Below, one piece after another: positions 1 to 21,617 of a stretch of 39,736 bases of DNA. Source of the DNA: Candidatus Avispirillum sp. (GTDB taxonomy: Bacteria > Bacillota > Clostridia > Oscillospirales > CAG-272); the NCBI GenBank assembly GCA_045632025.1, contig JAZQVW010000078.1, positions 1 to 39,736 of the forward strand, read 5' to 3'. Position 1 is the first letter of the stretch. Every line of letters begins with the position of its first letter. A model generated the notes under the pieces. It saw only the letters and a list, made by a program, of their open reading frames with translations. It did no database searches and was not told where the DNA came from. The position numbers were made by a program, and so were the translations under genes.

Positions 1-419
1 AGCAAGCGGTGTCATCCAAAGTGCGAGCGAGCAGAGCTGAGTACATCGAAGCGATGGCTCGCGACACACGACGATGACTGGAAGCAGCGGTGGATGAGGC
101 GTCCGGGCTTCGCTGCACGATGGTTAGAATTTGTAGGGCGGGGGTTTACTCCCGCCGTGCCAAAAGGTCAACATACATTAATAAAACATAAAATTTATGA
201 TTGTGTTGAATGCGGGACGTCGAAGGGGTTCCCCGAAACGAGGTTGACGAGTTTTGGGGGTTCCCGTCGAGGGTGCCGTCCCCTACCGTTATCAAATTTC
301 GCATAATCTAAGCCTAGACTCCTCACCCACCGCTGCTTCCAGTCATCGTCGTGTGTCGCGAGCCATCGCTTCGATGCACTCAGCTCTGCTCACTCGCACT
401 TTGGATGACACCGCTTGAT
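1..419. repeat. Large palindromic unit: ~91-bp near-perfect inverted-repeat arms (1-93 vs 327-419) around a 233-bp core
   Basis: The reverse complement of 1-93 matches 327-419 position for position (i pairs with 420-i), with 3 mismatches by hand count (positions 2, 28, 43). The left arm touches the window edge and may extend further. Confidence 0.9.
90..333 (+). repeat. Core repeat copy A (244 bp): GC-rich hairpins around an AT-rich centre
   Basis: Aligns without gaps to 3678-3921 (offset 3588) with 6 mismatches by hand count. Has inverted termini GTGGatGAGGcGTC / GACtCCTCacCCAC and internal hairpins such as ggcggggg-ttta-ctcccgcc. Confidence 0.9.
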
Positions 420-872
420 AAAACGATCATCAATCGTTTTAATAAGCATTGGAATGCAATAAGTGAATCTGAAAAATCGGGCGAAAAGTTCGTTGATATT
501 TGCAAGGATTTTTTGAACTTAGAGCTCTACTCTTTCGACGTTATGTGGAAATATGCTTTTTTTCACGATTTCAAAAAATCAAGAGCAAAGCACGGCACGA
601 TTATCGCTTGTGTTATATTGTTGTTATTGTGTGTCTTGCGCGGAATCGGAAAGGTTCTTTTTTGGAAAGAATCCTTTTGGACTGGTTTTCTCTATCCCTT
701 TGCTATTTCATTAGCAGCATCAGTCATTATTCTACCGCTGTTTTTATTAGGCAAAAAATCTCCCAAGGTTGCATCAATTATCGCAACAGTTCTTTTAGTA
801 TTGATAATTTTGTTTTTTATTGGTATATTTTTGCTCATCCTCTATGGAGCTGTCAACGCTATAATTGCATAA
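405..872 (+). CDS. Hypothetical multi-pass membrane protein (start uncertain)
   Basis: Uses ORF-track frame 351..872. The first ATG, at 405, lies inside the inverted-repeat arm and has no clear SD. The C-terminal two thirds are strongly hydrophobic (LLLLCVL, FAISLAASVIILPLFLL, VLLVLIILFFIGIFLLILYG). The stop is 27 nt before the next gene. The region is AT-rich relative to the housekeeping genes. Confidence 0.5.
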   Translation: MTPLDKTIINRFNKHWNAISESEKSGEKFVDICKDFLNLELYSFDVMWKYAFFHDFKKSRAKHGTIIACVILLLLCVLRGIGKVLFWKESFWTGFLYPFAISLAASVIILPLFLLGKKSPKVASIIATVLLVLIILFFIGIFLLILYGAVNAIIA

Positions 873-899
873 AAATGGCGATAATTAAGGAGAAAACAA

Positions 900-1184
900 A
901 TGAAAATAATAGAGCTTAATCTGAATGGTTGCAAATACCTTGAAGAAATACATATTAGAATACAGGACGCTTTGGACTTTCCTGATTATTACGGAAAAAA
1001 TTGGAGCGCTTTTTGGGACTGCATAAATCGTGACTGTGATGTAGATTTCGTAACAATTGTTGGGACCTCAAGTATTTCAAATGATTTAAAAGAATCAGTA
1101 AATAAGATGATTGAGATTCTTGAAAGAAACAAGCAATTTTGGAACGGTACGGATTGTCCATTTGACTATGAGATAATAGATTAA
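900..1184 (+). CDS. Barstar-family ribonuclease-inhibitor (immunity) protein
   Basis: 94 aa. The motif FPDYYGKNWSAFWDCI matches the barstar core LPEYYGENLDALWDCL (recalled). SD aaggagaa lies 8 nt upstream of the ATG, and a terminator follows. Confidence 0.8.
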   Translation: MKIIELNLNGCKYLEEIHIRIQDALDFPDYYGKNWSAFWDCINRDCDVDFVTIVGTSSISNDLKESVNKMIEILERNKQFWNGTDCPFDYEIID

Positions 1185-1200
1185 AAATGAAACAATGCAA

Positions 1201-1234
1201 AACGGGCGCACTCAGGCGCCCGTTATTATTTTTA
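1201..1234 (+). terminator. Rho-independent terminator after the barstar-like gene
   Basis: Stem aacgggcgc / gcgcccgtt with loop actcag, followed by attattttta. Confidence 0.8.
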
Positions 1235-1367
1235 TGATCCAATATATAACCCCATAAACTACCCCTGCGGCAGTGCCATAGAGGATAACGGGTCCTGCAA
1301 TAGTAAATATTTTTGCGCCGACGCCGAGGACAAACCCTACGGCTGCTGTCAATATAGGACACACCAT
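1212..1367 (-). pseudogene. Truncated duplicate of the spoVAC 3' end (51-codon remnant)
   Basis: Minus-strand frame reads MVCPILTAAVGFVLGVGAKIFTIAGPVILYGTAAGVVYGVIYWIIKIITGA*. Bases 1239-1338 align without gaps to spoVAC 2416-2515. There are 10 mismatches, all third-codon-position and synonymous, and the encoded 33 aa are identical. Confidence 0.85.
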
Positions 1368-1377
1368 CAAAAAAATA

Positions 1378-1406
1378 TTTACATCAAATCAACGGTGTGG
1401 TATAAT
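1378..1406 (+). promoter_or_regulatory. Sigma-A-type promoter for ORF 1428..2360
   Basis: -35 tttaca, 17-nt spacer, extended -10 tgg-tataat. Confidence 0.55.
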
Positions 1407-1427
1407 AATCTTAAAAGAGGTGAGCTT

Positions 1428-2360
1428 ATGCGGCGATTAACTAAGATATTGTTTTCTTTTTTCGTTTCTCTGTTTGTGTGTAGTATTGTCTTAGGATTAT
1501 TAGGTCGTGCGTTCTGCACTCGCAGCAATGACAACTATACATCAATTCAGCCGGAATCCTTTGTTCCCGACACAATAGAAACAGTTCTCCAAGATGATGA
1601 TTTAAAACAAATTTATGTATGCTATAATGATGCTAACTGTGTCAATGTGTATACCGAAGAAGGCAAATTTCTTTGGTGTGTAGCTACTCCGTATATGCGA
1701 AATTCCTACTTTGAGTTGCAAGATGATAAACTTATCATTTATAACGGGGATGCTTATATTTATGACTCCCAAAACGGTTCTTTTTTGGGAATTGAAAACG
1801 AAGAAAACCTAAATTTAAATTATGATTGGGAACAAAAATACGATGACCAATTCAAAAAAGGAAGCTTTTATTTTGACAGTTTTCAAGTTTATAAAGCAAA
1901 TGCAGATGGTACTTTGACTACCATCGTCAGCCGTCCTTGGTGGCATCACATATTTGATTACTCACTCTGTCTTGGTATAGCTTTCCTTGGTGCGATTGGT
2001 ATTGGCATAAGTATATTTTTAGAAAAGAAAAAAGATTATAACGCAGTAAAGAAAACTGTTGTTTTCGAAAATCGCAAAGCGAGAATTATCAAAGATTATT
2101 TCAAAATAACAACCATCATACACTCGACATATTTTGCCTTAAATATCATCTGCGCCTTTTTTACCGATTGGTTAATCATCGGCATTATCCCGCTGGCTCT
2201 CCATATGATTATTTCAAGCATTATACTGCGGAATATGAAAGATCGGTTATCGTGCAAATCAGAGGAAATGCAAGTAATTGACTTCTGGGAAACAACAGAA
2301 TTTGGTTCTTTTGTGATAGCATTCATTTCCGTCATCATTGTATCTTCAATAGCAGTTTAA
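1428..2360 (+). CDS. Hypothetical membrane protein: N-terminal anchor, ~170-aa extracytoplasmic domain, C-terminal multi-TM block
   Basis: ATG at 1428 follows SD agaggtga. The track start at 1395 is a GTG with no SD. Hydrophobic segments lie at the N-terminus and in the last ~130 aa. The gene is AT-rich, and I recognise no family. Confidence 0.6.
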   Translation: MRRLTKILFSFFVSLFVCSIVLGLLGRAFCTRSNDNYTSIQPESFVPDTIETVLQDDDLKQIYVCYNDANCVNVYTEEGKFLWCVATPYMRNSYFELQDDKLIIYNGDAYIYDSQNGSFLGIENEENLNLNYDWEQKYDDQFKKGSFYFDSFQVYKANADGTLTTIVSRPWWHHIFDYSLCLGIAFLGAIGIGISIFLEKKKDYNAVKKTVVFENRKARIIKDYFKITTIIHSTYFALNIICAFFTDWLIIGIIPLALHMIISSIILRNMKDRLSCKSEEMQVIDFWETTEFGSFVIAFISVIIVSSIAV

Positions 2361-2365
2361 GTGGT

Positions 2366-2396
2366 AAACCGCACCAAGAAATTGGTGCGGTTTTTG
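2366..2396 (+). terminator. Terminator hairpin between convergent ORF 1428..2360 and spoVAC
   Basis: Stem aaaccgcaccaa / ttggtgcggttt followed by tttttg. Confidence 0.8.
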
Positions 2397-2397
2397 T

Positions 2398-2838
2398 TTA
2401 AAACATTGTCGTAAACCAATATATAACCCCATAGACCACCCCTGCGGCAGTGCCGTATAGGATAACGGGACCGGCTATTGTGAATATCTTTGCGCCGACG
2501 CCGAGGACAAACCCTTCACCCTTTGAATCCACCGCGGGGGATGCAACCGCGTTTGCAAAGCCCGTGATTGGCACAAGGGTGCCTGCCCCCGCGTGCTTGG
2601 CTATGTTATCAAAAATGCCGATGCCCGTCAGCAGCGCAGTTATAAATATAAGAGTCACCGACACGAGAGTGGATGCCATTTTATCGGGCAGCCATATGCC
2701 GTAAAGCTGTGATAGCCCCTCGGCTATAAGACATATTGTGCCACCAATCAAAAACGCCTTTGTGCAGTTCTTTTTGGAATCCGTTTTCGTGGCAATCGCC
2801 TTGGCATATTTTTTGTAGTATTTCTTGTTTATTTTCAT
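2398..2838 (-). CDS. spoVAC: Stage V sporulation protein AC (SpoVAC)
   Basis: 146 aa. Shows the characteristic FDNIAKHAGAGTLVPITGFANAVASPAVDSKGEGFVLGVGAKIF segment and 4 TM helices. SD aaaaggagc lies upstream of the ATG at 2838. Confidence 0.85.
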   Translation of the reverse strand: MKINKKYYKKYAKAIATKTDSKKNCTKAFLIGGTICLIAEGLSQLYGIWLPDKMASTLVSVTLIFITALLTGIGIFDNIAKHAGAGTLVPITGFANAVASPAVDSKGEGFVLGVGAKIFTIAGPVILYGTAAGVVYGVIYWFTTMF

Positions 2839-2877
2839 ATTTGCTCCTTTTTTTCGTCAAAGAGAGATACATCACGC

Positions 2878-3035
2878 GGTAGGGGACGGCGCCCTCGACG
2901 TCCCGTCCTTACATACACAAAACAAATAAGATGTTTGAAACTTAGATATAATATTATTAATTACAAACACTTCTATCATACATAATAATTTCAAATCATT
3001 TCTTTATCGGGACGTCGAGGGCGCCGTCCCCTACC
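2878..3035. repeat. Perfect 28-bp inverted repeat (ggtaggggacggcgccctcgacgtcccg) around a 102-bp AT-rich spacer
   Basis: Arm 2878-2905 is the exact reverse complement of 3008-3035. The arm motif and the spacer start (acatacacaaaacaaataag) resemble parts of the 244-bp core (cgggacgtcga..gtcccctacc; acatacattaataaaacataaaa). Confidence 0.9.
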
Positions 3036-3117
3036 TATTCGGTTTGCGATCATTATAAAATGCTCTGTATAATCCTTTCCCAAGGCAATGTTTTTTAAAC
3101 TATTTACAATATATTTT

Positions 3118-3146
3118 TTGACTTTTTCATAAAAATATAATATACT
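3118..3146 (+). promoter_or_regulatory. Putative sigma-A promoter for the zinc-ribbon gene
   Basis: -35 ttgact, 17-nt spacer, -10 tatact. Confidence 0.45.
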
Positions 3147-3190
3147 ATAATCATCTAAGTGTTAAACTTAAGAAAGGTACGGTATACAAA

Positions 3191-3568
3191 ATGGCATTTT
3201 GGGACGAACTTACAAAAAGCGCAAAGGACGCGGCTGCGTTCACTAAAAAGAAGACTGAAGAGCTGACAGCTCTTGCAAAGCTGAAGCTTTCCCTCCACGG
3301 GGAGGAATCCAAGCTTGAAAAGTGCTACAGCGAGATCGGAGAGCACTACTACAATTTCCAGCGCAAGGAAGAGGATCACGCGGCTGAGATCGCGGCGCTT
3401 CTCCTTGAGGCAGACGATCTGAACGCTAAGATCGCAGAGCTGAAGGCTCAGCTTGCAACTCTTCAGAACGACGTTATCTGCAAGAAGTGCGGCGAGCAGA
3501 TCCCCGTTGAGGCATCCTTTTGCCCCATCTGCGGCCAGAAGCAGGACGAAGAAGAAATAAGCGAATAA
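3191..3568 (+). CDS. Zinc-ribbon domain protein with N-terminal coiled coil
   Basis: 125 aa. C-terminal CKKCGEQIPVEASFCPICG (CxxC-N11-CxxC), a heptad-like charged N-terminal region, SD aagaaagg, and a terminator downstream. Confidence 0.7.
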   Translation: MAFWDELTKSAKDAAAFTKKKTEELTALAKLKLSLHGEESKLEKCYSEIGEHYYNFQRKEEDHAAEIAALLLEADDLNAKIAELKAQLATLQNDVICKKCGEQIPVEASFCPICGQKQDEEEISE

Positions 3569-3570
3569 TA

Positions 3571-3598
3571 AAAAAGGAGGCAAAAGCCTCCTTTTTTT
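3571..3598 (+). terminator. Rho-independent terminator
   Basis: Stem ggaggc-aaaa-gcctcc followed by ttttttt. Confidence 0.85.
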
Positions 3599-3616
3599 AT
3601 TTCATAAGAAATGAGA

Positions 3617-3976
3617 TAAACGATAATTTAGCGTACTAAGCCTTCCCTGGGGGGAAAGGGGGCGAACCACTTCGTTAGTGGAAGAGGCGTCCGGGCTTCG
3701 CTGCACGATGGTTAGAATTTGTAGGGCGGGGGTTTACTCCCGCCGTGCCTAAAGGTCAACATACATTAATAAAACATAAAATTTATGATTGTGTTGAATG
3801 CGGGACGTCGAAGGGGTTCCCCGAAACGAGGTTGACGAGTTTTGGGGGTTCCCGTCGAGGGCAACCTCCCCTACCGTTATCAAATTTCGCATAATCTAAG
3901 CCTAGACTCCTCACCCACCGCAAGCGGTCCCCCCTCCCCCATGGGAGGGCTAAGGGGTTAAACGATAATTTAGCGT
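3617..3976. mobile_element. Nested MITE-like non-coding element flanked by perfect 18-bp direct repeats
   Basis: taaacgataatttagcgt occurs at 3617-3634 and again at 3959-3976. Between them are imperfect ~45-bp inverted termini (ctaagccttccctggggggaaaggggg.. / ..cccccctcccccatgggagggctaagg) enclosing core copy B. No ORF is conserved between the two core copies. Confidence 0.55.
3678..3921 (+). repeat. Core repeat copy B (244 bp)
   Basis: Gap-free match to 90-333. Four of the 6 mismatches cluster at 3862-3866, in one hairpin arm. Confidence 0.9.
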
Positions 3977-3977
3977 T

Positions 3978-4685
3978 TTATCCCTCGTACTCGTCCTCAG
4001 CAGAGTCGAAGCTTATATAGCTGCAGGGATCAACGTATTCTCCGTTTATCTTCATCTCAAAATGGACGTGGGGCTCTTCGGAAACCTCAACGAGCGCGCT
4101 TTCGCCTCCAACGGCAATAAACGTGCCCTCGGAAACAACAGCCCCAACGGCTATTCCTTCTGGAAGCTCGGGGGAGAGATTTTTATATATAGTCTCCGCC
4201 CCGCCTGAGTGGGCAATGCTGATACAAGTTCCCATCAAGGGGTCCTCCCAAACATTCGAGATAGTTCCGCCTGCCGCGGCAAGTATTCGCTCTCCGCTCT
4301 TAACGTATATATCAATTCCGTTATGTGTTCTGTAGTCCTCCATTGTTACGGAAAAAACGGGAACGTCCATGCTATAGTCCTTAACAAGCTTTCCGTTTGT
4401 GGGGTTTACAAAGCGTGAAGGCATTTTCTGATCTTCAGCCTCGGTCTCCGCCTCGCTATCCTTGCTATCTTCATTCTTTGAAGGGCTGAAAACATCCTCT
4501 GCCACGTCCTTATCCTCATTATTTTCAATAATGCTTTCGCCCGTTGTTTCAAGACTGAGACCGTCGCTTACGTTCTGTCCCATTCGGCTCATAGCCCCTG
4601 CAACTGCGGCAATTATTGCCACCGCCATCAGTATCACAATAAGGGCTACGTATAAATTTCCTTTTCTTTTTGCTCTGCTATTCAT
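3978..4685 (-). CDS. M23/LytM-family metallopeptidase with N-terminal membrane anchor
   Basis: HNGIDI (HxxxD) and HVHFEM (HxH) motifs, with N-terminal TM LYVALIVILMAVAIIAAVAGA. The ATG at 4685 with SD aaagga is preferred over the TTG at 4703. Confidence 0.8.
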   Translation of the reverse strand: MNSRAKRKGNLYVALIVILMAVAIIAAVAGAMSRMGQNVSDGLSLETTGESIIENNEDKDVAEDVFSPSKNEDSKDSEAETEAEDQKMPSRFVNPTNGKLVKDYSMDVPVFSVTMEDYRTHNGIDIYVKSGERILAAAGGTISNVWEDPLMGTCISIAHSGGAETIYKNLSPELPEGIAVGAVVSEGTFIAVGGESALVEVSEEPHVHFEMKINGEYVDPCSYISFDSAEDEYEG

Positions 4686-4752
4686 TTGACATATTCCTTT
4701 CAAGGTTTAGCTTTCTGTTTTATTTTTGCCACTGACAACAAAAATATTCACA

Positions 4753-4781
4753 TTGACAAGAGATTGGGAAAATGTTAAAAT
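4753..4781 (+). promoter_or_regulatory. Sigma-A promoter for the ThyX-like gene
   Basis: -35 ttgaca, 17-nt spacer, extended -10 tgt-taaaat. Confidence 0.6.
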
Positions 4782-4808
4782 GAAGAAAATGATACGTGCG
4801 AGGTAGTT

Positions 4809-5429
4809 ATGATCAAGCTTGAAAAAACTTCCGTTATGAATATAGACAACGCCATCCGCGGCGCAAGAAACCCTCTTAACAGCTGGGCGAAAAGCGACAG
4901 CTATTACGACGATGAAAACAATTTCGTTTTGGGCGCGGCTGACATGGGCCTCGGCCACCGCCTTGCTATTGCAGGCAACGACCACAGAAAGTTTCTGCGT
5001 ATGGTATTCGTTTCCGTTGACATTACTGCCCCTCTCTACTGGTGGAAGGAATACGACACCTACAAGGTTGGAACTGTTGCAAACTCCACAAGCACAATGC
5101 ACAAGATCCACTCAAAGCCCTTCGCTCGCGAAGACTTCTCCTGCGACAGAATGAGCGAAAAGGCGCTCTCCTGCCTTGACAACGTTATAAACGTTCTTGA
5201 GGAAACACGCCTTGAGTTTATTGAAACAAAGGAGAGAGCACATTGGGACGATCTTATTCAGCTTCTTCCCTCCTCCTACAATCAGACTCGCACATGCACA
5301 ATGAACTATGAAAATCTGATCAATATGTACTATGCAAGAAAAAATCACAAGCTCCCCGAATGGCACGAATTCTGCCATTGGATAGAGTCTCTCCCCTATG
5401 CAAAGGAATGGATCCTTATTAAGGAATAA
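4809..5429 (+). CDS. ThyX-fold (FAD-dependent thymidylate synthase-like) protein lacking the RHR..SxR signature
   Basis: 206 aa. Segments IRGARNPLNSW, DHRKFLRMVFVSVDITAPLYWW and TCTMNYENLINMYYARKNHKLPEWHEF align by eye with ThyX blocks (AARVS.., [47 protein letters not shown]). The RHRxxSxxxxSxR motif is replaced by YDTYKVGTVANSTSTMH. Confidence 0.55.
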   Translation: MIKLEKTSVMNIDNAIRGARNPLNSWAKSDSYYDDENNFVLGAADMGLGHRLAIAGNDHRKFLRMVFVSVDITAPLYWWKEYDTYKVGTVANSTSTMHKIHSKPFAREDFSCDRMSEKALSCLDNVINVLEETRLEFIETKERAHWDDLIQLLPSSYNQTRTCTMNYENLINMYYARKNHKLPEWHEFCHWIESLPYAKEWILIKE

Positions 5430-5433
5430 TATT

Positions 5434-5462
5434 AAAGCCCCCGAAAAAACGGGGGCTTTTAT
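5434..5462 (+). terminator. Rho-independent terminator
   Basis: Stem gcccccg-aaaaaa-cgggggc followed by ttttat. Confidence 0.85.
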
Positions 5463-5481
5463 TATTTATATAACGGAACAC

Positions 5482-5509
5482 AAAAAACCGCCTCGTTTGA
5501 GGCGGTTTT
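5482..5509 (-). terminator. Terminator downstream of ftsZ
   Basis: Stem aaaaccgcctc-gttt-gaggcggtttt. The U-run on the minus strand comes from the a-run at 5482-5487. Confidence 0.8.
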
Positions 5510-5523
5510 AATATGTTATTTAA

Positions 5524-6669
5524 TTAGAAGTAGCGCTTGAAGGCAGGAGCGGGAGCATCTTCCTTCTTATCCTTCTTCTGGAGCATACCGAGAAGCTCGT
5601 CGAGCTCATCATCTGTAATATCGTCGGATTCGATCTCGGGCTTTTCTTCCACAACTGCTGTTGCTGTCTTTCTTGCAATGGGAGTGGATGCCTTGGGAGC
5701 AACCTTCTCGTGGTTGTTTTCAAAGCCTGTAGCGATGATTGTAACCTTCATTGCATCTTCCATTTCAGGATCGAATGCTACACCCCAAATAACTGTTGCA
5801 TCTTCGTGAGCCTCGTTTGCGATCATTGTGCAAGCGATGTCGATCTCGTCCATGCTGATATCAGGGGATGCTGTGATGTTACCAAGGATACCCTTAGCGC
5901 CGGAAATAGATGTTTCAAGAAGGGGGCTGGAGATTGCAGCCTTTGCAGCGCACTCTGCCTTTTCCTTACCTGTTGCATAGCCTACGCCCATGTGAGCATA
6001 GCCTGCGTTCTGCATAACGCTTGTTACGTCTGCAAAGTCAAGGTTGATATATCCGGGAACGTTGATAAGCTCGGAAATGCTCTGTACGCCGTGGCTGAGA
6101 ACGTCGTGTGCGATCTCAAATGCGTTGATCATTGTGATGGGCTTATCGGAAACCTGCTTAAGACGCTCGTTGGGGATAATAACGAGAGAGTCTACGTACT
6201 GGCTGAGAGCAGCGATACCTGCTTCTGCCTGTGTGAGACGCTTCTTACCTTCAAATGCGAAGGGCTTTGTTACGATACCGATTGTGAGCATGCCCATTTC
6301 CTTTGCAACCTTTGCAACAACGGGAGCTGCACCTGTACCTGTACCACCACCCATACCGGTTGTGATAAATACCATATCAGCGCCTGTGAGAGAATCCTTG
6401 ATCTCCTCGATGCTCTCCTCAGCAGATTTTTCACCTACTGCAGGGTTGCTACCTGCGCCGTGACCCTTAGTGATCTTCTCACCAATGGAAATTTTATTTG
6501 TAGCTGCAGAATGGATAAGTGCCTGTCTGTCTGTGTTAATAGCGATGAAATCTACACCGCGAACATTGCTGGAAATCATACGGTTTACAGCATTGTTTCC
6601 GCCGCCGCCTACACCGATTACTTTTATGTTGACGCCGCTTTCAAAGTTATCATCAAGTTCAAAAGCCAT
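5524..6669 (-). CDS. ftsZ: Cell division GTPase FtsZ
   Basis: [17 protein letters not shown] and the tubulin signature [15 protein letters not shown] ggagga upstream. Confidence 0.97.
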
Positions 6670-6914
6670 TTTAAAAATCCTCCGTCATAATATGTTTCGC
6701 GTATGTTTCGCGGTTTTTTACCGCATTTCATACAAATACATACTAATAATATACTCTTTCTTTCAATTTTGCAAGATGTTTTTAAAAACTTTTTTAAAAA
6801 ATTTTATATTTTTGCAAAAAATCATATTTTTTAGGGGTTTTGGGCGCTTTTTTGTAAATTTATACACCCGCCTAAAACGCATTCTTTAGGCGGGTGTATA
6901 GTCTTTTTTTGTCT

Positions 6915-7913
6915 TTAATCTATTATAAGCTGGTTATCAATAACAACTCCCGTGCTTGAAAGCTCAGAAAGGTCTATGGTTGCCTTATTATCGTTATTAA
7001 ACAGCTCGTCTTCAAGGACCTTTGCGGCTATCTTAAGCTTCGCTTCGGCATCGCTATATTTCTCAAGCTTGAGAATATACTTACCGTCGCAGGTCATTTT
7101 TACGTCGTTTGGATTCTGAACGTCAACCGAACCAAGTCGGTTTACAAGGGCGGATTCGGATGCCGCAAGAGCAACCTCAAACACGTATTTACATTCGCCC
7201 TCCTTAAACACCACAAGCTCGCCTGCCACTGCTCTTCCCACCTCGGGAAGCTTCAGCTTGATGAGGCTTGCCGCCTCCTCCTCGGTTATCCCGCCAAGGA
7301 CTCTAAGGTCCTTTGTCAGCGCTCTTGTTTCTCCGTAGAAGTCGGCATAGTAATATGCCTCCTCCTCAACGATCTTAAGGATTATCTTTCCGGGAGGTGT
7401 TCTTTTCACCTTGATATCCTTTACGTTGGGGCAATACATCATAATATCCTCTTCGGCTATTCTTGAGCTGAAGGAATAAAGCTTGTCCCCCACGTTTATA
7501 TCTGCGGATGCTAAGATTTGCTCCGTCGTATATCTTTCGTTGCCCTCGACGGTTATACTGCGGACAACGAAGAAAAGATTATAAACACAAAATACTGCGA
7601 GAATGAAGGTTGCGCATCCGAGGATGGCGGAAACAATAATATCCTTTTTGGAATATTTTCTTCCCTTCTGCTCCGCCTTGGCCTTGGCCTCGGCCTCCTT
7701 TACCTGCGCTCTTTTTTCTTCGTAGTTTTTCGGACGGGACTTTTTGCTTGTCTCGTCAAAGGAGAAATCCTCCTCTATCTCATCAACAGCGGTTGTGCCC
7801 GTTGCGCCTGCCGCCGTTTTATTTGCATTATCTAATTTTACCGCATCGCGGCTCTCTTTCGTTTCAAGGAGCCGCCTCATTTTTTCGGCATAATATTCGT
7901 TATTATCGCTCAT
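6915..7913 (-). CDS. ftsQ: FtsQ/DivIB-type cell division protein (POTRA) with charged N-terminal extension
   Basis: Sits between murG and ftsZ. Single TM (IIVSAILGCATFILAVFCVYNLFF) followed by a POTRA-like VRSITVEGNERYT. SD aaaggagg. Confidence 0.75.
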   Translation of the reverse strand: MSDNNEYYAEKMRRLLETKESRDAVKLDNANKTAAGATGTTAVDEIEEDFSFDETSKKSRPKNYEEKRAQVKEAEAKAKAEQKGRKYSKKDIIVSAILGCATFILAVFCVYNLFFVVRSITVEGNERYTTEQILASADINVGDKLYSFSSRIAEEDIMMYCPNVKDIKVKRTPPGKIILKIVEEEAYYYADFYGETRALTKDLRVLGGITEEEAASLIKLKLPEVGRAVAGELVVFKEGECKYVFEVALAASESALVNRLGSVDVQNPNDVKMTCDGKYILKLEKYSDAEAKLKIAAKVLEDELFNNDNKATIDLSELSSTGVVIDNQLIID

Positions 7914-7939
7914 CGGCAGCCTCCTTTCTTATACGGCAA

Positions 7940-9049
7940 TTATTTCTCAATAAGCTTAAGAATATCGTTATAGATGACCTTATTTGCATCTTCCTTTGCA
8001 AATCTTTTGATCTTCTTTTCCATTTCCGCTCTCTTATCGGGATTATCAATAAGCTCAGAAACGATCTCGCAGAGGCGCTCGGGCATACCCTCGCCCTCGC
8101 GAAGCACGTACGCCGCGTGCTCAACGGAAAGAACAGATGCATTCTTGAACTGCTGATCGTCTGTTACGTTAGGAGAAGGAATAAACACTGCGCACTTGCC
8201 TGCCATTGCCAGCTCAGACACTGTCATTGCGCCTGCGCGGCAAATAACGATATCAGCGGCCGCAAGGCGAATGGGCATATCGTAGATATACTCAACAAGC
8301 TCAACGTTATTTACCTTATCAAAGCCCATTTCAATAGCCTTTGCAAAGCAGATATCCTTTTCGATCGCACCTGTTGCGTGAGTGTGCTTGATGCCGCTCT
8401 TGGCACCTGTTACGTTTTTCATAACCTCAAGGATGGCCTCGTTTACCTTCTCTGCTCCAAGGCTTCCGCCATAGGAAAGAACGTAAATAGCGTCCTGAGG
8501 GATTCCAAGCTGCTCTCTTGCCTCCGCCTTTGTGATATGCTCGGGAGGTGTAAGAAGGGGGCATCCGCAAAGAAGGAGCTTATCCTTCTGGGCAATGCCT
8601 GCGCCTGCAGCTTCGAAATTGAGATATATTCTGTTTACAGCGCCCTGGAGCATACGAACTGCCATTCCGGGAACTGCATTGGATTCGTGAAGGGCTGTGG
8701 GAATATCCATTGAAGCCGCCGCCTTGACAACGGGCCAGGAAACGTAGCCTCCTGTTCCGATAACGATATCGGGATTGAATTTTTTGATTATCTTCTTAGC
8801 CTTAAAGGGAGACGTGAGCGCAAGGTAAGCCGCCTTGATATTCTTCAGAGTCAGCTTACGGGAAAGGCCCATAACGTTTACGTGATAGAGCTCATAGCCT
8901 GCTTTTGCAACAAGCTTATTCTCTATTCCTCTGCTTGTGCCAACGAAGGCGATCTCAGAGGAAGGATCGTTTTCCTTGATAGTGTTTGCAATTGCAAGCG
9001 CAGGATTAACGTGACCTGCCGTGCCGCCGCCTGTCATTAATACTCTCAT
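7940..9049 (-). CDS. murG: UDP-N-acetylglucosamine--N-acetylmuramyl-(pentapeptide) pyrophosphoryl-undecaprenol GlcNAc transferase MurG
   Basis: N-terminal MRVLMTGGGTAGHVNPALA, plus GGYVSWP and GGSLGA motifs, in dcw context. Confidence 0.95.
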   Translation of the reverse strand: MRVLMTGGGTAGHVNPALAIANTIKENDPSSEIAFVGTSRGIENKLVAKAGYELYHVNVMGLSRKLTLKNIKAAYLALTSPFKAKKIIKKFNPDIVIGTGGYVSWPVVKAAASMDIPTALHESNAVPGMAVRMLQGAVNRIYLNFEAAGAGIAQKDKLLLCGCPLLTPPEHITKAEAREQLGIPQDAIYVLSYGGSLGAEKVNEAILEVMKNVTGAKSGIKHTHATGAIEKDICFAKAIEMGFDKVNNVELVEYIYDMPIRLAAADIVICRAGAMTVSELAMAGKCAVFIPSPNVTDDQQFKNASVLSVEHAAYVLREGEGMPERLCEIVSELIDNPDKRAEMEKKIKRFAKEDANKVIYNDILKLIEK

Positions 9050-9061
9050 ATGAACCTCCCG

Positions 9062-10351
9062 TTATTTCTTTTGATATGAATGTCTTGATATTGAAAGAAG
9101 CAATCCCATTTCCGCCAGAAGCACGATAAGCGCTGTGCCACCATAGGAAAAGAAGGGCAATGAAATACCTGTGTTGGGGATAAGGTCTGTTACAACCATC
9201 ATATTAAGGAACGCCTGGATACCAACCTGGCAGGTGATACCGAAGGCAACAAGGGATGAATACGTGTCGGGTGCTTTCTTTGCGATAACGAAGCCACGCC
9301 AGATAAACGCCGCATAGAGAAGCACGACTATAATGGCTCCCACAAATCCCATTTCCTCGCACCAGATAGTGAAGATAAAGTCGTTCTGAGGCTCAGAAAC
9401 GTAGTTGTACTTGAGACGGCTATCTCCAAGTCCGACGCCGAGAAGGCCGCCGCTGCCTATAGCATAAAGGCCCTGAGTTGTCTGCCAAGCCTCACCAAGC
9501 ACGTCTGCATTTTCATCGGCGTGAGTGAGGATTCGCTGAAGAGCATAGGGGTTAAGAGCAAGGAATGCTCCGATGGCCGCCGCGCCGCAGGCTCCGTAGA
9601 TGGAAACTGCCCATCCGATATGTACGCCTCCGAGGAATATTACACAAACTGAGATAAGCGCGATGATGATAGTTCCTGAAAGGTGTCTTTCAAGAAGAAC
9701 AAGTCCGCAGATGATAGCCATTATTATGCCGGGATGAACAACGCCGTCCATTATAATGGATCTTCTGTCTATCTTCTTCTGTATCCTATCGTAAAACTTA
9801 TCAAAATACCAGGCCAGCATCATTATTACGCCGACCTTTCCCGCCTCAGAGGGCTGGAAGGTGAATGAGCCTATCTGGATCCATCGCTTTGCAACACCCT
9901 CGCTGGTTCCGATTACGAGAACCACGAGAAGAAGGAATATTGCAACCACATATACTGCGGGAGTGAGCTTTTTATAGATATGGAGGGGTATAAAGGAAAA
10001 CAGAAGCATTACGAGGCCGCCGCCTCCAATGAATATAAGCTGTCTCTTAAGATAATGGGCGCTATCGCCTCTCTCAAGAAGAGCGCTGGGGAAACTGGCT
10101 GAGAAAACCATTATGGTTCCAAGAAGGAGGATTATTGCGATTATTGCAAGCATGGGACGGTCTACGCCGTGTCTCACTCGCTCAATCTTTTTATCCTCGC
10201 GCTTCCATTCCTCCTCGCGCTTTTTACGCATCAGGGCGCGTCCGCTGAGCTGAACAACTGCCCCTGCATTGTTTTTCGGTCTCACGGCTTGAGGCTTCTC
10301 TCTGACCGGCGCGCCTGGCTTTCTGTTTATATTATATTTTTGATCGTTCAT
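9062..10351 (-). CDS. ftsW: FtsW/SpoVE-family peptidoglycan glycosyltransferase (SEDS)
   Basis: Polytopic membrane protein with PSE..K, FIFTIWCEEMGFVG and LPFFSYGGTAL motifs. The ATG at 10351 with SD aaggaga is preferred over the GTG at 10357. Confidence 0.9.
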   Translation of the reverse strand: MNDQKYNINRKPGAPVREKPQAVRPKNNAGAVVQLSGRALMRKKREEEWKREDKKIERVRHGVDRPMLAIIAIILLLGTIMVFSASFPSALLERGDSAHYLKRQLIFIGGGGLVMLLFSFIPLHIYKKLTPAVYVVAIFLLLVVLVIGTSEGVAKRWIQIGSFTFQPSEAGKVGVIMMLAWYFDKFYDRIQKKIDRRSIIMDGVVHPGIIMAIICGLVLLERHLSGTIIIALISVCVIFLGGVHIGWAVSIYGACGAAAIGAFLALNPYALQRILTHADENADVLGEAWQTTQGLYAIGSGGLLGVGLGDSRLKYNYVSEPQNDFIFTIWCEEMGFVGAIIVVLLYAAFIWRGFVIAKKAPDTYSSLVAFGITCQVGIQAFLNMMVVTDLIPNTGISLPFFSYGGTALIVLLAEMGLLLSISRHSYQKK

Positions 10352-10378
10352 TTTCACCGGTCTCCTTTGCCGAAATTT

Positions 10379-11383
10379 TTATCTTACCAATCCAAACCAA
10401 GCAAGAACGCAGAACAGAAGAGTTACGAGAGAGAACACTGCAACTATCTTGATTTCTGTCCAGCCGCACTTTTCAAAATGGTGATGAATGGGGGCCATCT
10501 TGAAGAGGCGCTTGCCGTGTGTAAGCTTGAAATATCCCACCTGAAGCATAACTGATGCTGTTTCAATGATATACATAATACCGCAAACAACAACGATAAG
10601 GGGATTGCCCAAAAGGAATGCTCCGCCAACTACCAGACCGCCGAAGAAGAGGGAGCCTGTATCGCCCATAAAAACTCTTGCGGGATAGAAGTTATAAACA
10701 AGGAATCCGAGAGCGCTTCCTGCCATGATCGCGCCAACAACGCTGAGGGCTGCATTTTCGCCTGTTGCTGCAAGGAACGCCGCAACGGAATAGAAAACCG
10801 CAACAACTGCTGTGATGGAGCTTGCAAGGCCGTCGATGCCGTCTGTCAGGTTAACTGCATTTACAACACCTGTGAGAAGGAGCATTGCGATTATATAATA
10901 GAAAATACCAAAGTTGATCGTTACGTTAACGAAGGGGATGTAAAGCTCTGTTGTTACTCCACAGAAGAAGCACATTGCAAGCAGATAGAGGCCTGCAACG
11001 AGAACCTGCAAAATAAACTTCTGAGCCGCTGTGAGACCCTCGTTCTGTCGTCTCTTAAGCTTTGCCATATCGTCTACGATGCCGATGCATCCGTTAAGTA
11101 TTGCCATAATAAGAGTGAACATAAGAGGAAGAGCCGCATCCATGCCGCGCATCACCCATATAACTGCAGTTGCGATCGCTCCGCAAACTGCAGAGGCAAT
11201 GATAAATGCAAGGCCGCCCATTGTGGGTGTTCCCTCTTTGGACTTATGCCAGCGGGGACCTATATCAAGGATCTTCTGCCCCATCTTGCGGCTTGCAAGG
11301 ACGGGAATAAGCTTTTTTGAAATGCCTACCGTCAAAAGAAACGTCAAAACAAGAACTGCTGCAAAAATAATTTTAAGTGTCAT
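10379..11383 (-). CDS. mraY: Phospho-N-acetylmuramoyl-pentapeptide transferase MraY
   Basis: K.GTPTMGG, NAVNLTDGIDGLA, DTGSL and APIHHHFE motifs. Confidence 0.95.
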   Translation of the reverse strand: MTLKIIFAAVLVLTFLLTVGISKKLIPVLASRKMGQKILDIGPRWHKSKEGTPTMGGLAFIIASAVCGAIATAVIWVMRGMDAALPLMFTLIMAILNGCIGIVDDMAKLKRRQNEGLTAAQKFILQVLVAGLYLLAMCFFCGVTTELYIPFVNVTINFGIFYYIIAMLLLTGVVNAVNLTDGIDGLASSITAVVAVFYSVAAFLAATGENAALSVVGAIMAGSALGFLVYNFYPARVFMGDTGSLFFGGLVVGGAFLLGNPLIVVVCGIMYIIETASVMLQVGYFKLTHGKRLFKMAPIHHHFEKCGWTEIKIVAVFSLVTLLFCVLAWFGLVR

Positions 11384-11444
11384 TTTTCCTTACCGTTCCT
11401 AACTTTATTTATTGGTTATATAATACCACATTCCGCTTGTTCGG

Positions 11445-12890
11445 TCAACAATTACGGCTTCTGCCAAGGGCTGACAAAACTACATCCCTCTCGCTGAAGG
11501 GATGCCTGCCCGCGGCGTCCTGTTCATATTCCTCGTGTCCCTTTCCGCAAAGCAGAATGAACTCATTCTTTTTCGCCGTTGCCACTGCATATTCAATGGC
11601 ACTGCGCCTGTCTACTATTACTCTGATGTTTTTACTTCCGCCGACACCTGACAGAATATCGCGGATGATATCCTCCCTTTTTTCGCTTCTGGGATTGTCG
11701 CTGGTTATGACCACCTTATGGGCTCTTTCTGCCGCAATGCGTCCCATAGGGGCGCGCTTGGTCTTATCCCTGTCGCCTCCGCATCCGAAAAGCACCGTTA
11801 CGGGATTCTCTCCCGCAATGCTTCTGATGCAATCTATTGCGCCTGCAAGGGCATCGGGGGTGTGGGCATAATCAACGTACATATGGATGCCGTACGCCTC
11901 GGCCTCCTCGATCCTTTCCATCCTGCCGCTGACATACGGCACGGCGGATATTCCCTTTCCTATAGCATTTGGAGATATTCCAAGAAGATAAGCGGCCTTG
12001 GCGGCAAGCATCGTATTCTCAACCGTGAAAAAACCGGGGGATGCGGATGATATCTGAATAGCCAAATCTCCAAGGGTCAGCTCATAGGAAATGCCGCTCT
12101 CGCTCATACGAAGCCATTTGGCTTCCTCGTTTTCCGCTGTGCAGCATCGTTTTATTTCCGATGCCAGTCGGCGTCCATAGGATGAATTGCATCCGATAAC
12201 TGCCCTTTTACAGCATTTTATAAAGGATGCCTTGGTTTTGTAATATTCCTCCATTCCCGAATGGAAATCAAGATGCTCGGGGGATAAATTTGTGAAAACT
12301 CCCAGCTCAAATCTTACGGGGGCTACCCTGCACCGCGCGATGGCATGGCTGGACACCTCCATCACAACAGCCTCTGCACCTCTTTGTCTGAGTCTGTACA
12401 ACAGCCCATACAGCATCTCGGGATCGGGAGTTGTCATTGAGCACCCCTCTCCGAACACCGCAGCCTCACCCTCAAAGGAGCAACCGAGAGTTCCGATGGA
12501 TGCGGTTTTTATTCCGCCCTCATTCATAGCTGAGGACAGATATGCCACGGTTGAGGTCTTACCGTTCGTTCCCGTGACCGCGACCATAAGCATTTTTCTT
12601 GTTGGATTACCGTAAAAATTATCCCAAATAACAGAGTCTGCCAGCCTTGTGCTTTTTACAACGATACAGGGTATGCCGCATATATACCGCTCGCTGACCA
12701 CCGCAACCGCGCCGCGACGTATGGCATCCTCCGCAAACTGATGGCCATCGTATCTCGTGCCTCTTATGCATATGAAGAGACCGCCGAAGCCGATAGTCCG
12801 CGAATCTGACGAAATACCCTTGACGTGACAGCGAAGGTCCACCCCGAACGTATTGTATTTAAGTCCTGACAAAAGCTCTGCTAACTGCAT
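11445..12890 (-). CDS. murE: UDP-N-acetylmuramoyl-L-alanyl-D-glutamate--2,6-diaminopimelate ligase MurE
   Basis: VTGTNGKTST P-loop and DYAHTPDAL, with a DNPR motif (meso-DAP type). Lies downstream of the PBP gene. Confidence 0.9.
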   Translation of the reverse strand: MQLAELLSGLKYNTFGVDLRCHVKGISSDSRTIGFGGLFICIRGTRYDGHQFAEDAIRRGAVAVVSERYICGIPCIVVKSTRLADSVIWDNFYGNPTRKMLMVAVTGTNGKTSTVAYLSSAMNEGGIKTASIGTLGCSFEGEAAVFGEGCSMTTPDPEMLYGLLYRLRQRGAEAVVMEVSSHAIARCRVAPVRFELGVFTNLSPEHLDFHSGMEEYYKTKASFIKCCKRAVIGCNSSYGRRLASEIKRCCTAENEEAKWLRMSESGISYELTLGDLAIQISSASPGFFTVENTMLAAKAAYLLGISPNAIGKGISAVPYVSGRMERIEEAEAYGIHMYVDYAHTPDALAGAIDCIRSIAGENPVTVLFGCGGDRDKTKRAPMGRIAAERAHKVVITSDNPRSEKREDIIRDILSGVGGSKNIRVIVDRRSAIEYAVATAKKNEFILLCGKGHEEYEQDAAGRHPFSERDVVLSALGRSRNC

Positions 12891-12938
12891 ATATTCCTCC
12901 GGAAGCTAAAATTTATTTTCTTTTAACTTCCGAAGCTA

Positions 12939-21300: not shown

Positions 21301-21464
21301 TGGGGCTTACCGTTCGCTGTGGGAGGGCCGTCATAGAACGTGTAATTCTTCTGACCCTTACGTCTTTCAAGACTTGTTTCAAAAATTCTGTTTTCCTTCC
21401 AGAAAGCAAGAGTTTCAGCTTCTCTGGAAACAAAATTAAGGTCGGTCGGTACCTTCTTGTACAT
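18351..21464 (-). pseudogene. ileS: Type-2 isoleucine--tRNA ligase interrupted by a single in-frame TAG (codon at 20922-20924)
   Basis: Track ORFs 20922..21584 and 18351..20702 are in the same frame. Translation across the junction reads [33 protein letters not shown] ([11 protein letters not shown]) and KMSKS motifs are present. The ATG at 21464 has SD aggaga, and a T-box(Ile) leader lies upstream. Confidence 0.9.
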
Positions 21465-21513
21465 TTTATTTTCTCCTGTAAAAGTATATTTTCGATGTAT
21501 CAGGATAGCAGAA

Positions 21514-21541
21514 GAATGCAGAATGCAGAGTGCAGAATGCA
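21514..21541. repeat. Heptamer tandem repeat (gaatgca)x4 in the ileS 5' leader
   Basis: Units are gaatgca gaatgca gagtgca gaatgca, 50-77 nt upstream of the ileS ATG. Confidence 0.9.
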
Positions 21542-21580
21542 GGATTAATGAAGAAATTCGCCGCAGGCAAATTTCAACCT

Positions 21581-21617
<37 letters not shown>

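Follow-up and report, generated by a model that had tools for sequence, protein, structure and literature searches.

A tandem cassette array with the spoVAC 3' end as inter-cassette repeat in Candidatus Avispirillum

Several described bacterial and phage systems gather unrelated genes around a repeated sequence. Integrons, including the sedentary chromosomal ones, hold co-oriented tandem arrays of diverse, mostly single-gene cassettes that are rich in toxin, immunity and defence functions and are spaced by attC, an imperfect palindrome that recombines as a folded single strand, with an IntI tyrosine recombinase, an attI site and a common promoter (Pc) for cassettes that have none. The integrative and conjugative elements (ICEs), integrative and mobilizable elements (IMEs) and cis-mobilizable elements (CIMEs) of streptococci, and SGI1 at trmE, are flanked by direct repeats of the 3' end of a target gene that stays intact. 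In Neisseria, promoter-less copies (pilS) exchange patches with the expressed pilE gene; orphan modules after cdiA and rhs genes repeat 3' toxin fragments with their immunity genes; and the PeSL cassettes of T4-type phages, thought to be exchanged by homologous recombination, set conserved promoter and terminator modules round unrelated small genes. Integrative elements at gene 3' ends, and their accretion, are treated in two papers (PMC8409611, PMC2297512). Here we analyse a stretch of 39,736 nucleotides of Candidatus Avispirillum sp. (assembly GCA_045632025.1, contig JAZQVW010000078.1), called the window below, in which a second, truncated copy of the 3' end of spoVAC lies beyond an accessory gene. 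The locus belongs to a tandem cassette array in which the spoVAC end is the inter-cassette repeat. Such arrays are widespread in gut Clostridia, in Candidatus Avispirillum and other Oscillospirales of animal guts, and apparently undescribed; a full-text literature search returned no paper treating spoVAC as an insertion site or array anchor.

A sequence-only reading of the window had claimed that the truncated copy, the remnant, matches the gene end without gaps and differs from it by synonymous changes only. Recomputed by self-alignment of the window, 1239-1338 and 2416-2515 are indeed identical at 90 of 100 ungapped positions. The mismatches (1257, 1260, 1278, 1281, 1293, 1296, 1299, 1302, 1305 and 1311) all ten fall on codon position 3 in the minus-strand frames of the open reading frames (ORFs) 1212..1370 and 2398..2838, and the 33 encoded residues, GFVLGVGAKIFTIAGPVILYGTAAGVVYGVIYW, are the same in remnant and gene. 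An independent repeat finder returned 1228-1338 and 2405-2515 (111 nt, 86%) as the sole repeat of such type in the window. In gene orientation, a fully identical block of 27 nt stands on the 5' side (1312-1338 = 2489-2515) and one of 18 nt on the 3' side (1239-1256 = 2416-2433). Codons 109-141 hold 10 synonymous and 0 nonsynonymous differences over 26.8 and 72.2 sites, a proportion of synonymous differences (pS) of 0.37 by the Nei-Gojobori method, and in 200,000 random draws of 10 substitutions an entirely synonymous set never came up. Because the differences are all synonymous, the remnant has not merely decayed in place, and the earlier claim that it diverged under coding constraint stands. 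The same reading had named nonsynonymous or indel differences as a sign against itself: there are none in codons 109-141, but the homology extends to codon 108, where the gene has GAA (E) and the remnant GTA (V), the one nonsynonymous change, at the margin of the repeat. Past W141 the tails diverge, the gene ending in FTTMF* and the remnant in IIKIITGA*. Including codon 108, remnant 1239-1340 is identical to the expressed copy at 91 of 102 positions. The remnant matches positions 84-117 of the 117 of the Pfam model SpoVAC_SpoVAEB (PF03862; E = 2e-6), and the intact ORF matches the entire model (E = 1.6e-38). The features of the locus are given below from the gene outwards; comparison loci, most of them metagenome-assembled genomes (MAGs) or short metagenome contigs, carry L numbers.

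2398..2838, minus strand: intact spoVAC, 146 aa, expressed copy; Pfam SpoVAC_SpoVAEB; 97% amino acid identity to L001, a Candidatus Avispirillum MAG
2416..2517, minus strand: codons 108-141 of spoVAC, functional copy of the repeat ('frag'), from the repeat alignment; Avispirillum-type peptide
2398..2415, minus strand: tail codons 142-146 (FTTMF) and stop, moving with cassette 1 in the alignment of cassette copies
2366..2393, plus strand: hairpin terminator of ORF310, 4 nt away from the stop of spoVAC; a T run follows its 12-bp stem
1428..2360, plus strand: cassette 1 gene ORF310, 310 aa, membrane protein, no Pfam family (ORF, Pfam scan)
1414-1423, plus strand: strong Shine-Dalgarno sequence AAAGAGGTG, downstream of the cassette promoter
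1378..1406, plus strand: cassette promoter TTTACA-17-TGgTATAAT, the best promoter-like site in 300-3200 (11/12 matches plus TG)
1341..1366, no strand: conserved boundary GGCTGCTGTCAATATAGGACACACC, abutting codon 108 of essentially every remnant
1347-1361, no strand: near-palindrome TGTCAATATAGGACA, 15 nt, inside the boundary (sequence)
1239..1340, minus strand: remnant copy of codons 108-141 (alignment, Pfam); Avispirillum-type allele
1212..1238, minus strand: remnant tail IIKIITGA and stop ('tail B'), same tail type in L002, L020 and L003
1201..1224, plus strand: GC-rich hairpin terminator common to the barstar operon and the remnant, conserved with tail B in L002, L003 and L020
900..1184, plus strand: Barstar-family immunity gene of the second cassette; Pfam Barstar, E = 1.7e-17
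438..872, plus strand: 3' two-thirds of a MerR-family membrane protein gene, N-terminal helix-turn-helix (HTH) lost; 81% to aa 115-243 of a 254-aa L002 protein
1..420, no strand: hairpin element with 108-nt inverted arms round a 244-nt core, interrupting the MerR-type gene (repeat finder)

The promoter and terminator that had been claimed for ORF310 were thus both located in the sequence, and the terminator is conserved with the cassette in L007, L021, L036, L084 and L109. The assignment of a barstar to the second cassette held up under the Pfam search. Homologues of the MerR-type gene directly follow spoVAC in L001 and L002. From 420 to 2400 the DNA has about 35% G+C, against about 48-55% for the flanking core genes.

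How far does this arrangement extend beyond one window? SpoVAC relatives were compared at 37 loci of a one-genome-per-species collection, among which L001 shares 97%, and L002 and L003 93%, of the protein with the window; the comparison puts the window in Candidatus Avispirillum or near it. Additional 5'-truncated spoVAC ends lie downstream of the gene in five of the 37: one in L002, two and a third, truncated one in L003, one in L007, a decayed one in L009 and three in L037. The remnants all start at codon 105-108 or thereabouts, directly after the conserved boundary. The boundary with the first bases of codon 108, used as a query, retrieved 85 metagenome contigs, mostly short and from animal gut and rumen, a set that is biased to that structure and in which boundary-less variants are not countable. 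All fetched loci together hold about 130-150 fragment copies, of which roughly 80-100 are 5'-truncated remnants, copies at contig edges being possibly misclassified as such; at least 32 contigs have two or more copies, and the maximum on one contig is five (one expressed and four remnants). The surroundings of ORF310 homologues yielded two further arrays that are well assembled: L123 (GCA_964310135.1) reads spoVAC, four cassettes, four remnants and then spoVAD, and L124 and L125 have four remnants. With this many fragments and multi-copy contigs, the proposal of a recurrent site of recombination or insertion at the spoVAC 3' end is upheld. In L123 (199-1939) the array sits between spoVAC and spoVAD, with about 550 nt from the last remnant to spoVAD, and splits the usual spoVAC-spoVAD-spoVAEB operon, which L004 and L005, both Avispirillum relatives, have undivided. 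Partial modules occur at array ends: L002 13555-13600 consists of the boundary and only the first 18 nt or so of the fragment, and a remnant at L003 13672-13753 lacks boundary and 5' half and retains tail B and its hairpin. That contigs were simply misjoined through the repeat seems to us barely conceivable. Many of the related contigs are short and break at repeats, as such an artefact would have it, but the order spoVAC, cassette 1, remnant was assembled independently in L084 and L109, multi-unit arrays were assembled in L003, L079, L087, L123, L124 and L125, and the identical stretches between units, about 18-35 nt, are shorter than the k = 141 implied by the 'k141' names of some assemblies.

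The repeating unit, read in the direction of spoVAC, comprises codons 108-146 with stop and terminator, then an accessory gene or a small number of them encoded on the other strand, with their conserved sigma-A-type promoter, 5' untranslated region (UTR) and Shine-Dalgarno sequence, and the boundary. The commonest tail is ITTLF, in many synonymous spellings, and a common form of the terminator is AAAGGCTTGACC...GGTCAAGCCTTT; in cassette orientation, promoter, 5' UTR and Shine-Dalgarno sequence read TTTACATTAAATCnGCGGTGTGGTATAAT...AAAGTGAGGTG-N6-ATG. Sixty-four aligned remnant flanks show the same boundary, promoter, 5' UTR and Shine-Dalgarno sequence ahead of unrelated cassette genes. Only the first copy of the gene end is joined to a spoVAC body and expressed; later copies are promoter-less and 5'-truncated. 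In 42 complete units the period ranges from 540 to 4058 nt with a median near 1.1 kb, and clustering of the 75 ORFs (90 aa or longer) in them gives 63 protein clusters: the comparison of spoVAC-downstream regions that the sequence-only reading had suggested finds alternative cassettes in the same slot. Pfam matches, summarised over 60 cassette proteins as the 25 most frequent of 49 families matched, include Barstar, Phage_Mu_F with a barnase-type Ribonuclease, DMP19, TIR, MerR, GNAT, M28 peptidase, EamA and a GH35 enzyme, and many cassette genes have no known family. Barstar and MuF-barnase pairs recur in other arrays. Homologues of ORF310 form 155 clusters, many of them on contigs whose length, about 1.1-1.5 kb, is the cassette period, and the gene stands in spoVAC arrays of L007, L021, L036, L084, L109, L123 and L124. 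Elsewhere its homologues are fused to a MerR HTH (P0026, 453 aa) or lie behind an AraC-type regulator away from spoVAC (L126 5122-6933), a hint that transcription regulators use members of this family as membrane partners or sensor modules. One further locus with a homologue, 49% identical, was rejected as a spoVAC array: L127 has no spoVAC fragments and represents a different immunity-like island, a 13-kb run (1-12957) of at least 17 small genes on one strand (DMP19, DUF1963, DUF4304, GNAT, ion channel, HTH).

The boundary itself exists in three homologous variants built round GTCAAyWTAGGAC and, upstream of codon 108, keeps no reading frame across remnants. Possibly it derives, by decay, from codons 100-107 or so of an 'AIDNKA'-type spoVAC (TATTGACAACAAGGCA followed by GAG versus TATTGACAGCAGCA followed by GAG), a likeness that is suggestive; a global test of the boundary against spoVAC codons 100-107 over all lineages was not significant. 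Its motifs TGTCAAT, TGTCAAC and TGTCGAA lie some 55-60 nt ahead of the point where transcription of the cassette starts and are, we presume, similar to Spo0A boxes (TGTCGAA).

Cassette bodies have evidently been transferred horizontally between genera. Compared with the window, cassette 1 is 98% identical in nucleotides in L021, where the SpoVAC protein is 53% identical; the corresponding values are 93% and 57% in L084, 92% and 62% in L007, where cassette 1 is second in the array, after a remnant, and 82% and 60% in L036. Among the copies of L021, L036 and L007, identity reaches at least 97% where the fragment ends, at TATGGGGTTATATATTGG (its last 18 nt, codons 136-141), and stays there through tail, terminator and ORF, and in L084 and L109 high identity begins only at the stop codon; the 84 nt ahead of TATGGGGTTATATATTGG differ by 20-25% among cassette 1 copies, mostly at third positions. 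Between window and L084, pS is 0.11 in ORF310, 0.56 in the fragment ahead of the cassette and 0.66 in the fragment behind it. Other cassette families show the same unlinked pattern, homology between cassette copies running from the tail or stop codon through the boundary. Since the fragments of about 100 nt on either side are unlinked to the cassette body, the mobile piece extends from tail to boundary. Here the sequence-only reading fails on one point, for it had incoming DNA supply its own 100-bp version of the gene end: in five contexts the identity starts only at the last 18 nt or at the stop, so that the cassette supplies at most the five-codon tail and the terminator. For the same reason a fixed crossover at codon 108, with the cassette bearing the whole 3' end, was rejected (20-25% differences over the first 84 nt against at most 3% from the last 18 nt). 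A crossover point confined to those last 18 nt, by which the promoter-side fragment would travel with the cassette, was rejected as a general rule, the distal fragments being unlinked as well (pS 0.66 against 0.11). Both fragment copies of the window carry the Avispirillum-specific peptide, and the remnant shares polymorphisms with other Avispirillum copies. Tail types exchange roles from one relative to another: L002 and L020 (VIKCITGA) have tail B (..IKxITGA and a GGGCGCC hairpin) on the expressed gene, the window and L003 have it on remnants, and the L002 remnant bears an A-type tail (ISNLF). In L001, the closest relative seen, a MerR-type gene comes straight after spoVAC and ORF310 is absent from that place; the contig ends 343 nt past the gene.

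These observations bear on the plainest alternative, an ancient tandem duplication of the spoVAC end with its neighbour that was inherited vertically and kept alike by concerted evolution, with no mobility. One homologous boundary in all remnants fits a single founding junction, and copies within a genome are more alike than copies of different genomes, as such a history predicts. It does not account for the same cassette at 93-98% beside spoVAC genes whose proteins are 53-57% identical, for 63 unrelated gene clusters in the same slot, for the MerR-type gene in the place of ORF310 in L001, or for tails and cassettes that are ordered differently in L002, L003 and L020. We therefore regard it as quite improbable; as a full explanation tandem duplication is contradicted, and it survives only as the founding event.

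Why do the spare copies remain coding? Pairs of remnants have a pS of 0.73, which is saturated, as are the synonymous distances between copies in general, and a proportion of nonsynonymous differences (pN) of 0.13. Eleven remnants encode the same 34 residues yet differ at 10-28 of 102 nt, and a stop codon occurs in only 2 of 80 ungapped remnant fragments (twelve further fragments need a gap to align). Strong coding conservation of this kind would also be expected if the remnants were expressed as small two-helix membrane peptides, and the window remnant does lie in an ORF of 52 aa (1212..1370) in which an ATG precedes codon 108 by nine codons. The view of remnants as small genes in their own right was nonetheless rejected: there is no conserved start or Shine-Dalgarno sequence, several remnants (in L002 and L003, and the second one of L037) have a stop or lack a start just upstream, no promoter points in that direction, and the variation of the upstream boundary does not preserve a peptide. 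Expression of this sort is very improbable in our estimation. The copies within arrays share patches with the expressed copy, with which they appear to exchange sequence, in a direction that we infer. In L003 the first 35 nt, some of whose codons are atypical of the genus, do not differ between expressed copy and first remnant; the copies of L079 and L087 are almost identical over about the first 74 and 50 nt, respectively, with a few mismatches near the start; and those of L073 agree at 99 of 102 positions. The expressed copy of L124 matches the most distal remnant at 101 of 102 positions and the three internal remnants at 65-79%, and that of L123 is a mosaic of patches resembling its remnants R3 and R4. 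Third-position identity is higher in same-contig than in inter-contig pairs along the whole fragment, shared tracts between copies measure about 26 to 100 nt, and the ten longest identical runs of adjacent copies all begin in the first 30 nt (P of about 0.004-0.008 by a simulation that allows for uneven conservation).

Could a dedicated enzyme move the cassettes? No integrase was visible to the sequence-only reading, in agreement with our Pfam scans of every substantial ORF of the 39.7-kb window, which gave no integrase, recombinase or transposase. Likewise, no recombinase appears in the precomputed Pfam lists of the L123, L124 and L125 neighbourhoods or among the 25 most frequent of the 49 Pfam families in the 60 cassette proteins. 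The boundary pattern had no match in viral contigs and the array unit none in plasmids; the lone 'phage' match, MT837074, was discarded, being an unverified record that resembles a bacterial contig, its spoVAC ordinary and not followed by an array. Rfam searches of the region gave only weak chance matches, and an exact-sequence look-up of the window SpoVAC, ORF310 and barstar returned no record. Small non-autonomous cassettes, comparable to CIMEs or integron cassettes, might nevertheless be inserted successively at an att site in the last codons of spoVAC by a trans-acting recombinase whose gene lies at another place in the genome or on a helper element, the gene end then being att homology. 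The direct repeats of the gene 3' end that flank the inserts, the tandem accretion to four units and the spread of cassettes between genera are all in keeping with this, as is the clustering of cassette 1 junctions at TATGGGGTTATATATTGG or the stop codon, and a sharp boundary with a near-palindrome and repeated TAGGAC motifs could bind a protein. Set against it, besides the negative searches just listed, is the variation in position: cassette 1 junctions fall at +84 in some copies and at the stop codon in others, and shared tracts range from about 26 to about 100 nt. Moreover, a fixed crossover at either end of the fragment predicts a fragment linked to one neighbouring cassette, a linkage that is not seen, and the 84 nt upstream of such a core would never be translated, yet they stay coding. 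This explanation is unlikely, although of the alternatives weighed it is the one to which we allow the largest share.

We favour, with moderate confidence, a model in which cassettes are exchanged by homology between the repeated gene-end modules, accompanied by gene conversion with the expressed copy. Each cassette is framed by about 300 nt of common sequence, the gene end with its terminator to one side and the promoter with the boundary to the other; given such flanks, homologous recombination could insert, delete or replace cassettes, within a genome or with DNA of other genera. Recombination may also take place between the gene-end copies themselves, and any outcome of exchange would leave spoVAC complete. 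Patchy conversion between the expressed copy, which is under selection, and the spare copies, starting preferentially on the boundary side, would keep the spares translatable, and the differences between copies would therefore be almost only synonymous. As all remnants share one homologous boundary, a single founding duplication would have produced it, with exchange afterwards, rather than independent insertions by an att-specific integrase. For the window, this model suggests that an Avispirillum ancestor had a spoVAC with tail B, as in L002 and L020, with the MerR-type gene and barstar behind it. Another lineage would then have contributed cassette 1, consisting of tail FTTMF, terminator, ORF310, promoter and boundary. 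The stretch 1239-1340 with tail B would thus be the gene end of host-genus type behind a recent import, whose FTTMF and terminator complete the working gene. Several points weigh against this model. For RecA dependence and recombination intermediates there is no direct evidence; the left junctions of cassette 1 all lie in a narrow zone, from the last 18 nt to the stop, which a fixed crossover site could produce likewise; and the fully identical blocks of 18-27 nt are short for efficient homologous recombination between genera. In addition, the near-identity of expressed and most distal copies in L124 and L073 could reflect target duplication at insertion, the loading of new genes behind the conserved promoter is left unexplained, and the comparison draws on that boundary-selected metagenome sample and on loci that are mostly MAGs or short contigs.

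The hairpin element 1..420, at the edge of the window, is the limit of the visible array, whose distal end lies left of position 1 of this single window of the host genome. It consists of the inverted repeat I1 (3-110 / 310-417), and its core takes part in the direct repeat D1 (90-333 = 3678-3921, 98%). The second copy of this 244-nt core belongs to a structured non-coding element of about 310 nt (3640-3951; RNA fold z = -5.4, no Rfam family) that is flanked by an 18-nt direct repeat, TAAACGATAATTTAGCGT (3617-3634 / 3959-3976), resembling a target duplication; the flanking stems of the two copies are quite different. Just upstream of spoVAC, a perfect 28-nt GC-rich inverted repeat, GGTAGGGGACGGCGCCCTCGACGTCCCG (2878-2905 / 3008-3035), surrounds about 100 nt of AT-rich DNA, and related hairpins, CCCCTACG/CGTAGGGG, follow the stop codons of many spoVAC copies elsewhere and are also found in L011 and L062; the hairpins GGTAGGGGACGGCGCCCTCGACGTCCCG, CCCCTACG and CGTAGGGG look like a family of repetitive extragenic palindromic (REP)-like elements. 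The remainder of the window is core genome, running from mraZ to ftsZ, with an IleRS-type synthetase, uvrC, sugar enzymes and tRNAs. The gene of the IleRS-type synthetase (18351-21584, minus strand) is divided into two ORFs by one in-frame TAG at about 20916-20918 (..KGHKIGP*CPRCGT..), where we take tryptophan to be the expected residue. The TAG could stem from a sequencing error or mark a pseudogene; it could also be a stop that is suppressed, the gene being essential.

What are the implications of such an array? If the model is upheld, uncultured gut and rumen Clostridia have at these loci a large store of mobile accessory genes that had gone unnoticed (toxin-immunity pairs, TIR, DMP19, regulators and genes with no assigned role), in which the repeated end of a core gene lets each gain, loss or swap keep that gene intact. 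It would be a natural case of integron-like cassette dynamics without an integrase, and of non-expressed fragments whose reading frame is kept perfect by exchange with a copy that is expressed. The boundary pattern together with spoVAC codons 108-146 provides a signature by which arrays can be found, and the repeat structure explains why metagenome assemblies break at these loci into contigs of about 1.1 kb. More speculatively, and with doubt on our part, the whole may be a new, integron-like platform for gene capture in spore-forming gut Clostridia, with no resident integrase, in which the translatable 3' end of spoVAC, an essential sporulation gene, is the recombination site, any spare copy can become the working gene end, and a polar, boundary-initiated step, possibly by an unrecognised enzyme, loads and shuffles self-promoted defence and toxin-immunity cassettes. 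Were this true, the boundary motifs that we presume to be like Spo0A boxes would link cassette expression to sporulation.

With integrons the array shares the co-oriented tandem order, mostly single-gene and diverse cassettes rich in toxin, immunity and defence genes, a conserved inter-cassette repeat and cassettes common to different taxa. In contrast to integrons, no IntI tyrosine recombinase was found beside it (window ORFs, L123, L124), the repeat appears to be a direct, protein-coding gene end rather than a palindromic attC, with only the 15-nt near-palindrome in the boundary, and each cassette has its own TTTACA-17-TGGTATAAT promoter and Shine-Dalgarno sequence and hence there is no common Pc. 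Like the streptococcal ICEs, IMEs and CIMEs and SGI1, its inserts are flanked by direct repeats of a target 3' end and leave the gene intact, and, like their integrase-less derivatives, its units accumulate in tandem without a recombinase of their own. Unlike these, the units are of about 1 kb with one gene, no helper integrase is seen in the window, among the 25 most frequent Pfam families of the cassettes or in the annotated relatives, and the repeat of about 140 nt is diverged at synonymous sites rather than being an identical core, with junctions that appear to vary. As in pilE/pilS, promoter-less, 5'-truncated copies nearby exchange patches with an expressed gene (L003, L079, L087, L123, L124), but here the exchange conserves the peptide (low pN) instead of diversifying the protein, and the copies space unrelated genes. 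The orphan cdiA-CT/cdiI and rhs modules likewise place repeated 3' fragments after a full-length gene, each with small immunity-type genes (Barstar and MuF-barnase in our arrays); their fragment is a variable toxin domain, whereas that of the array is the constant membrane-helix C-terminus of SpoVAC, and the cassette genes of the array lie on the opposite strand with their own promoter. The PeSL cassettes resemble the array in their conserved modules round exchangeable genes and differ in belonging to phage genomes and involving no host gene end. The spoVAC-end array combines features of integrons, 3'-end accretion, silent-cassette conversion and orphan toxin-immunity arrays, and is a member of none of them.

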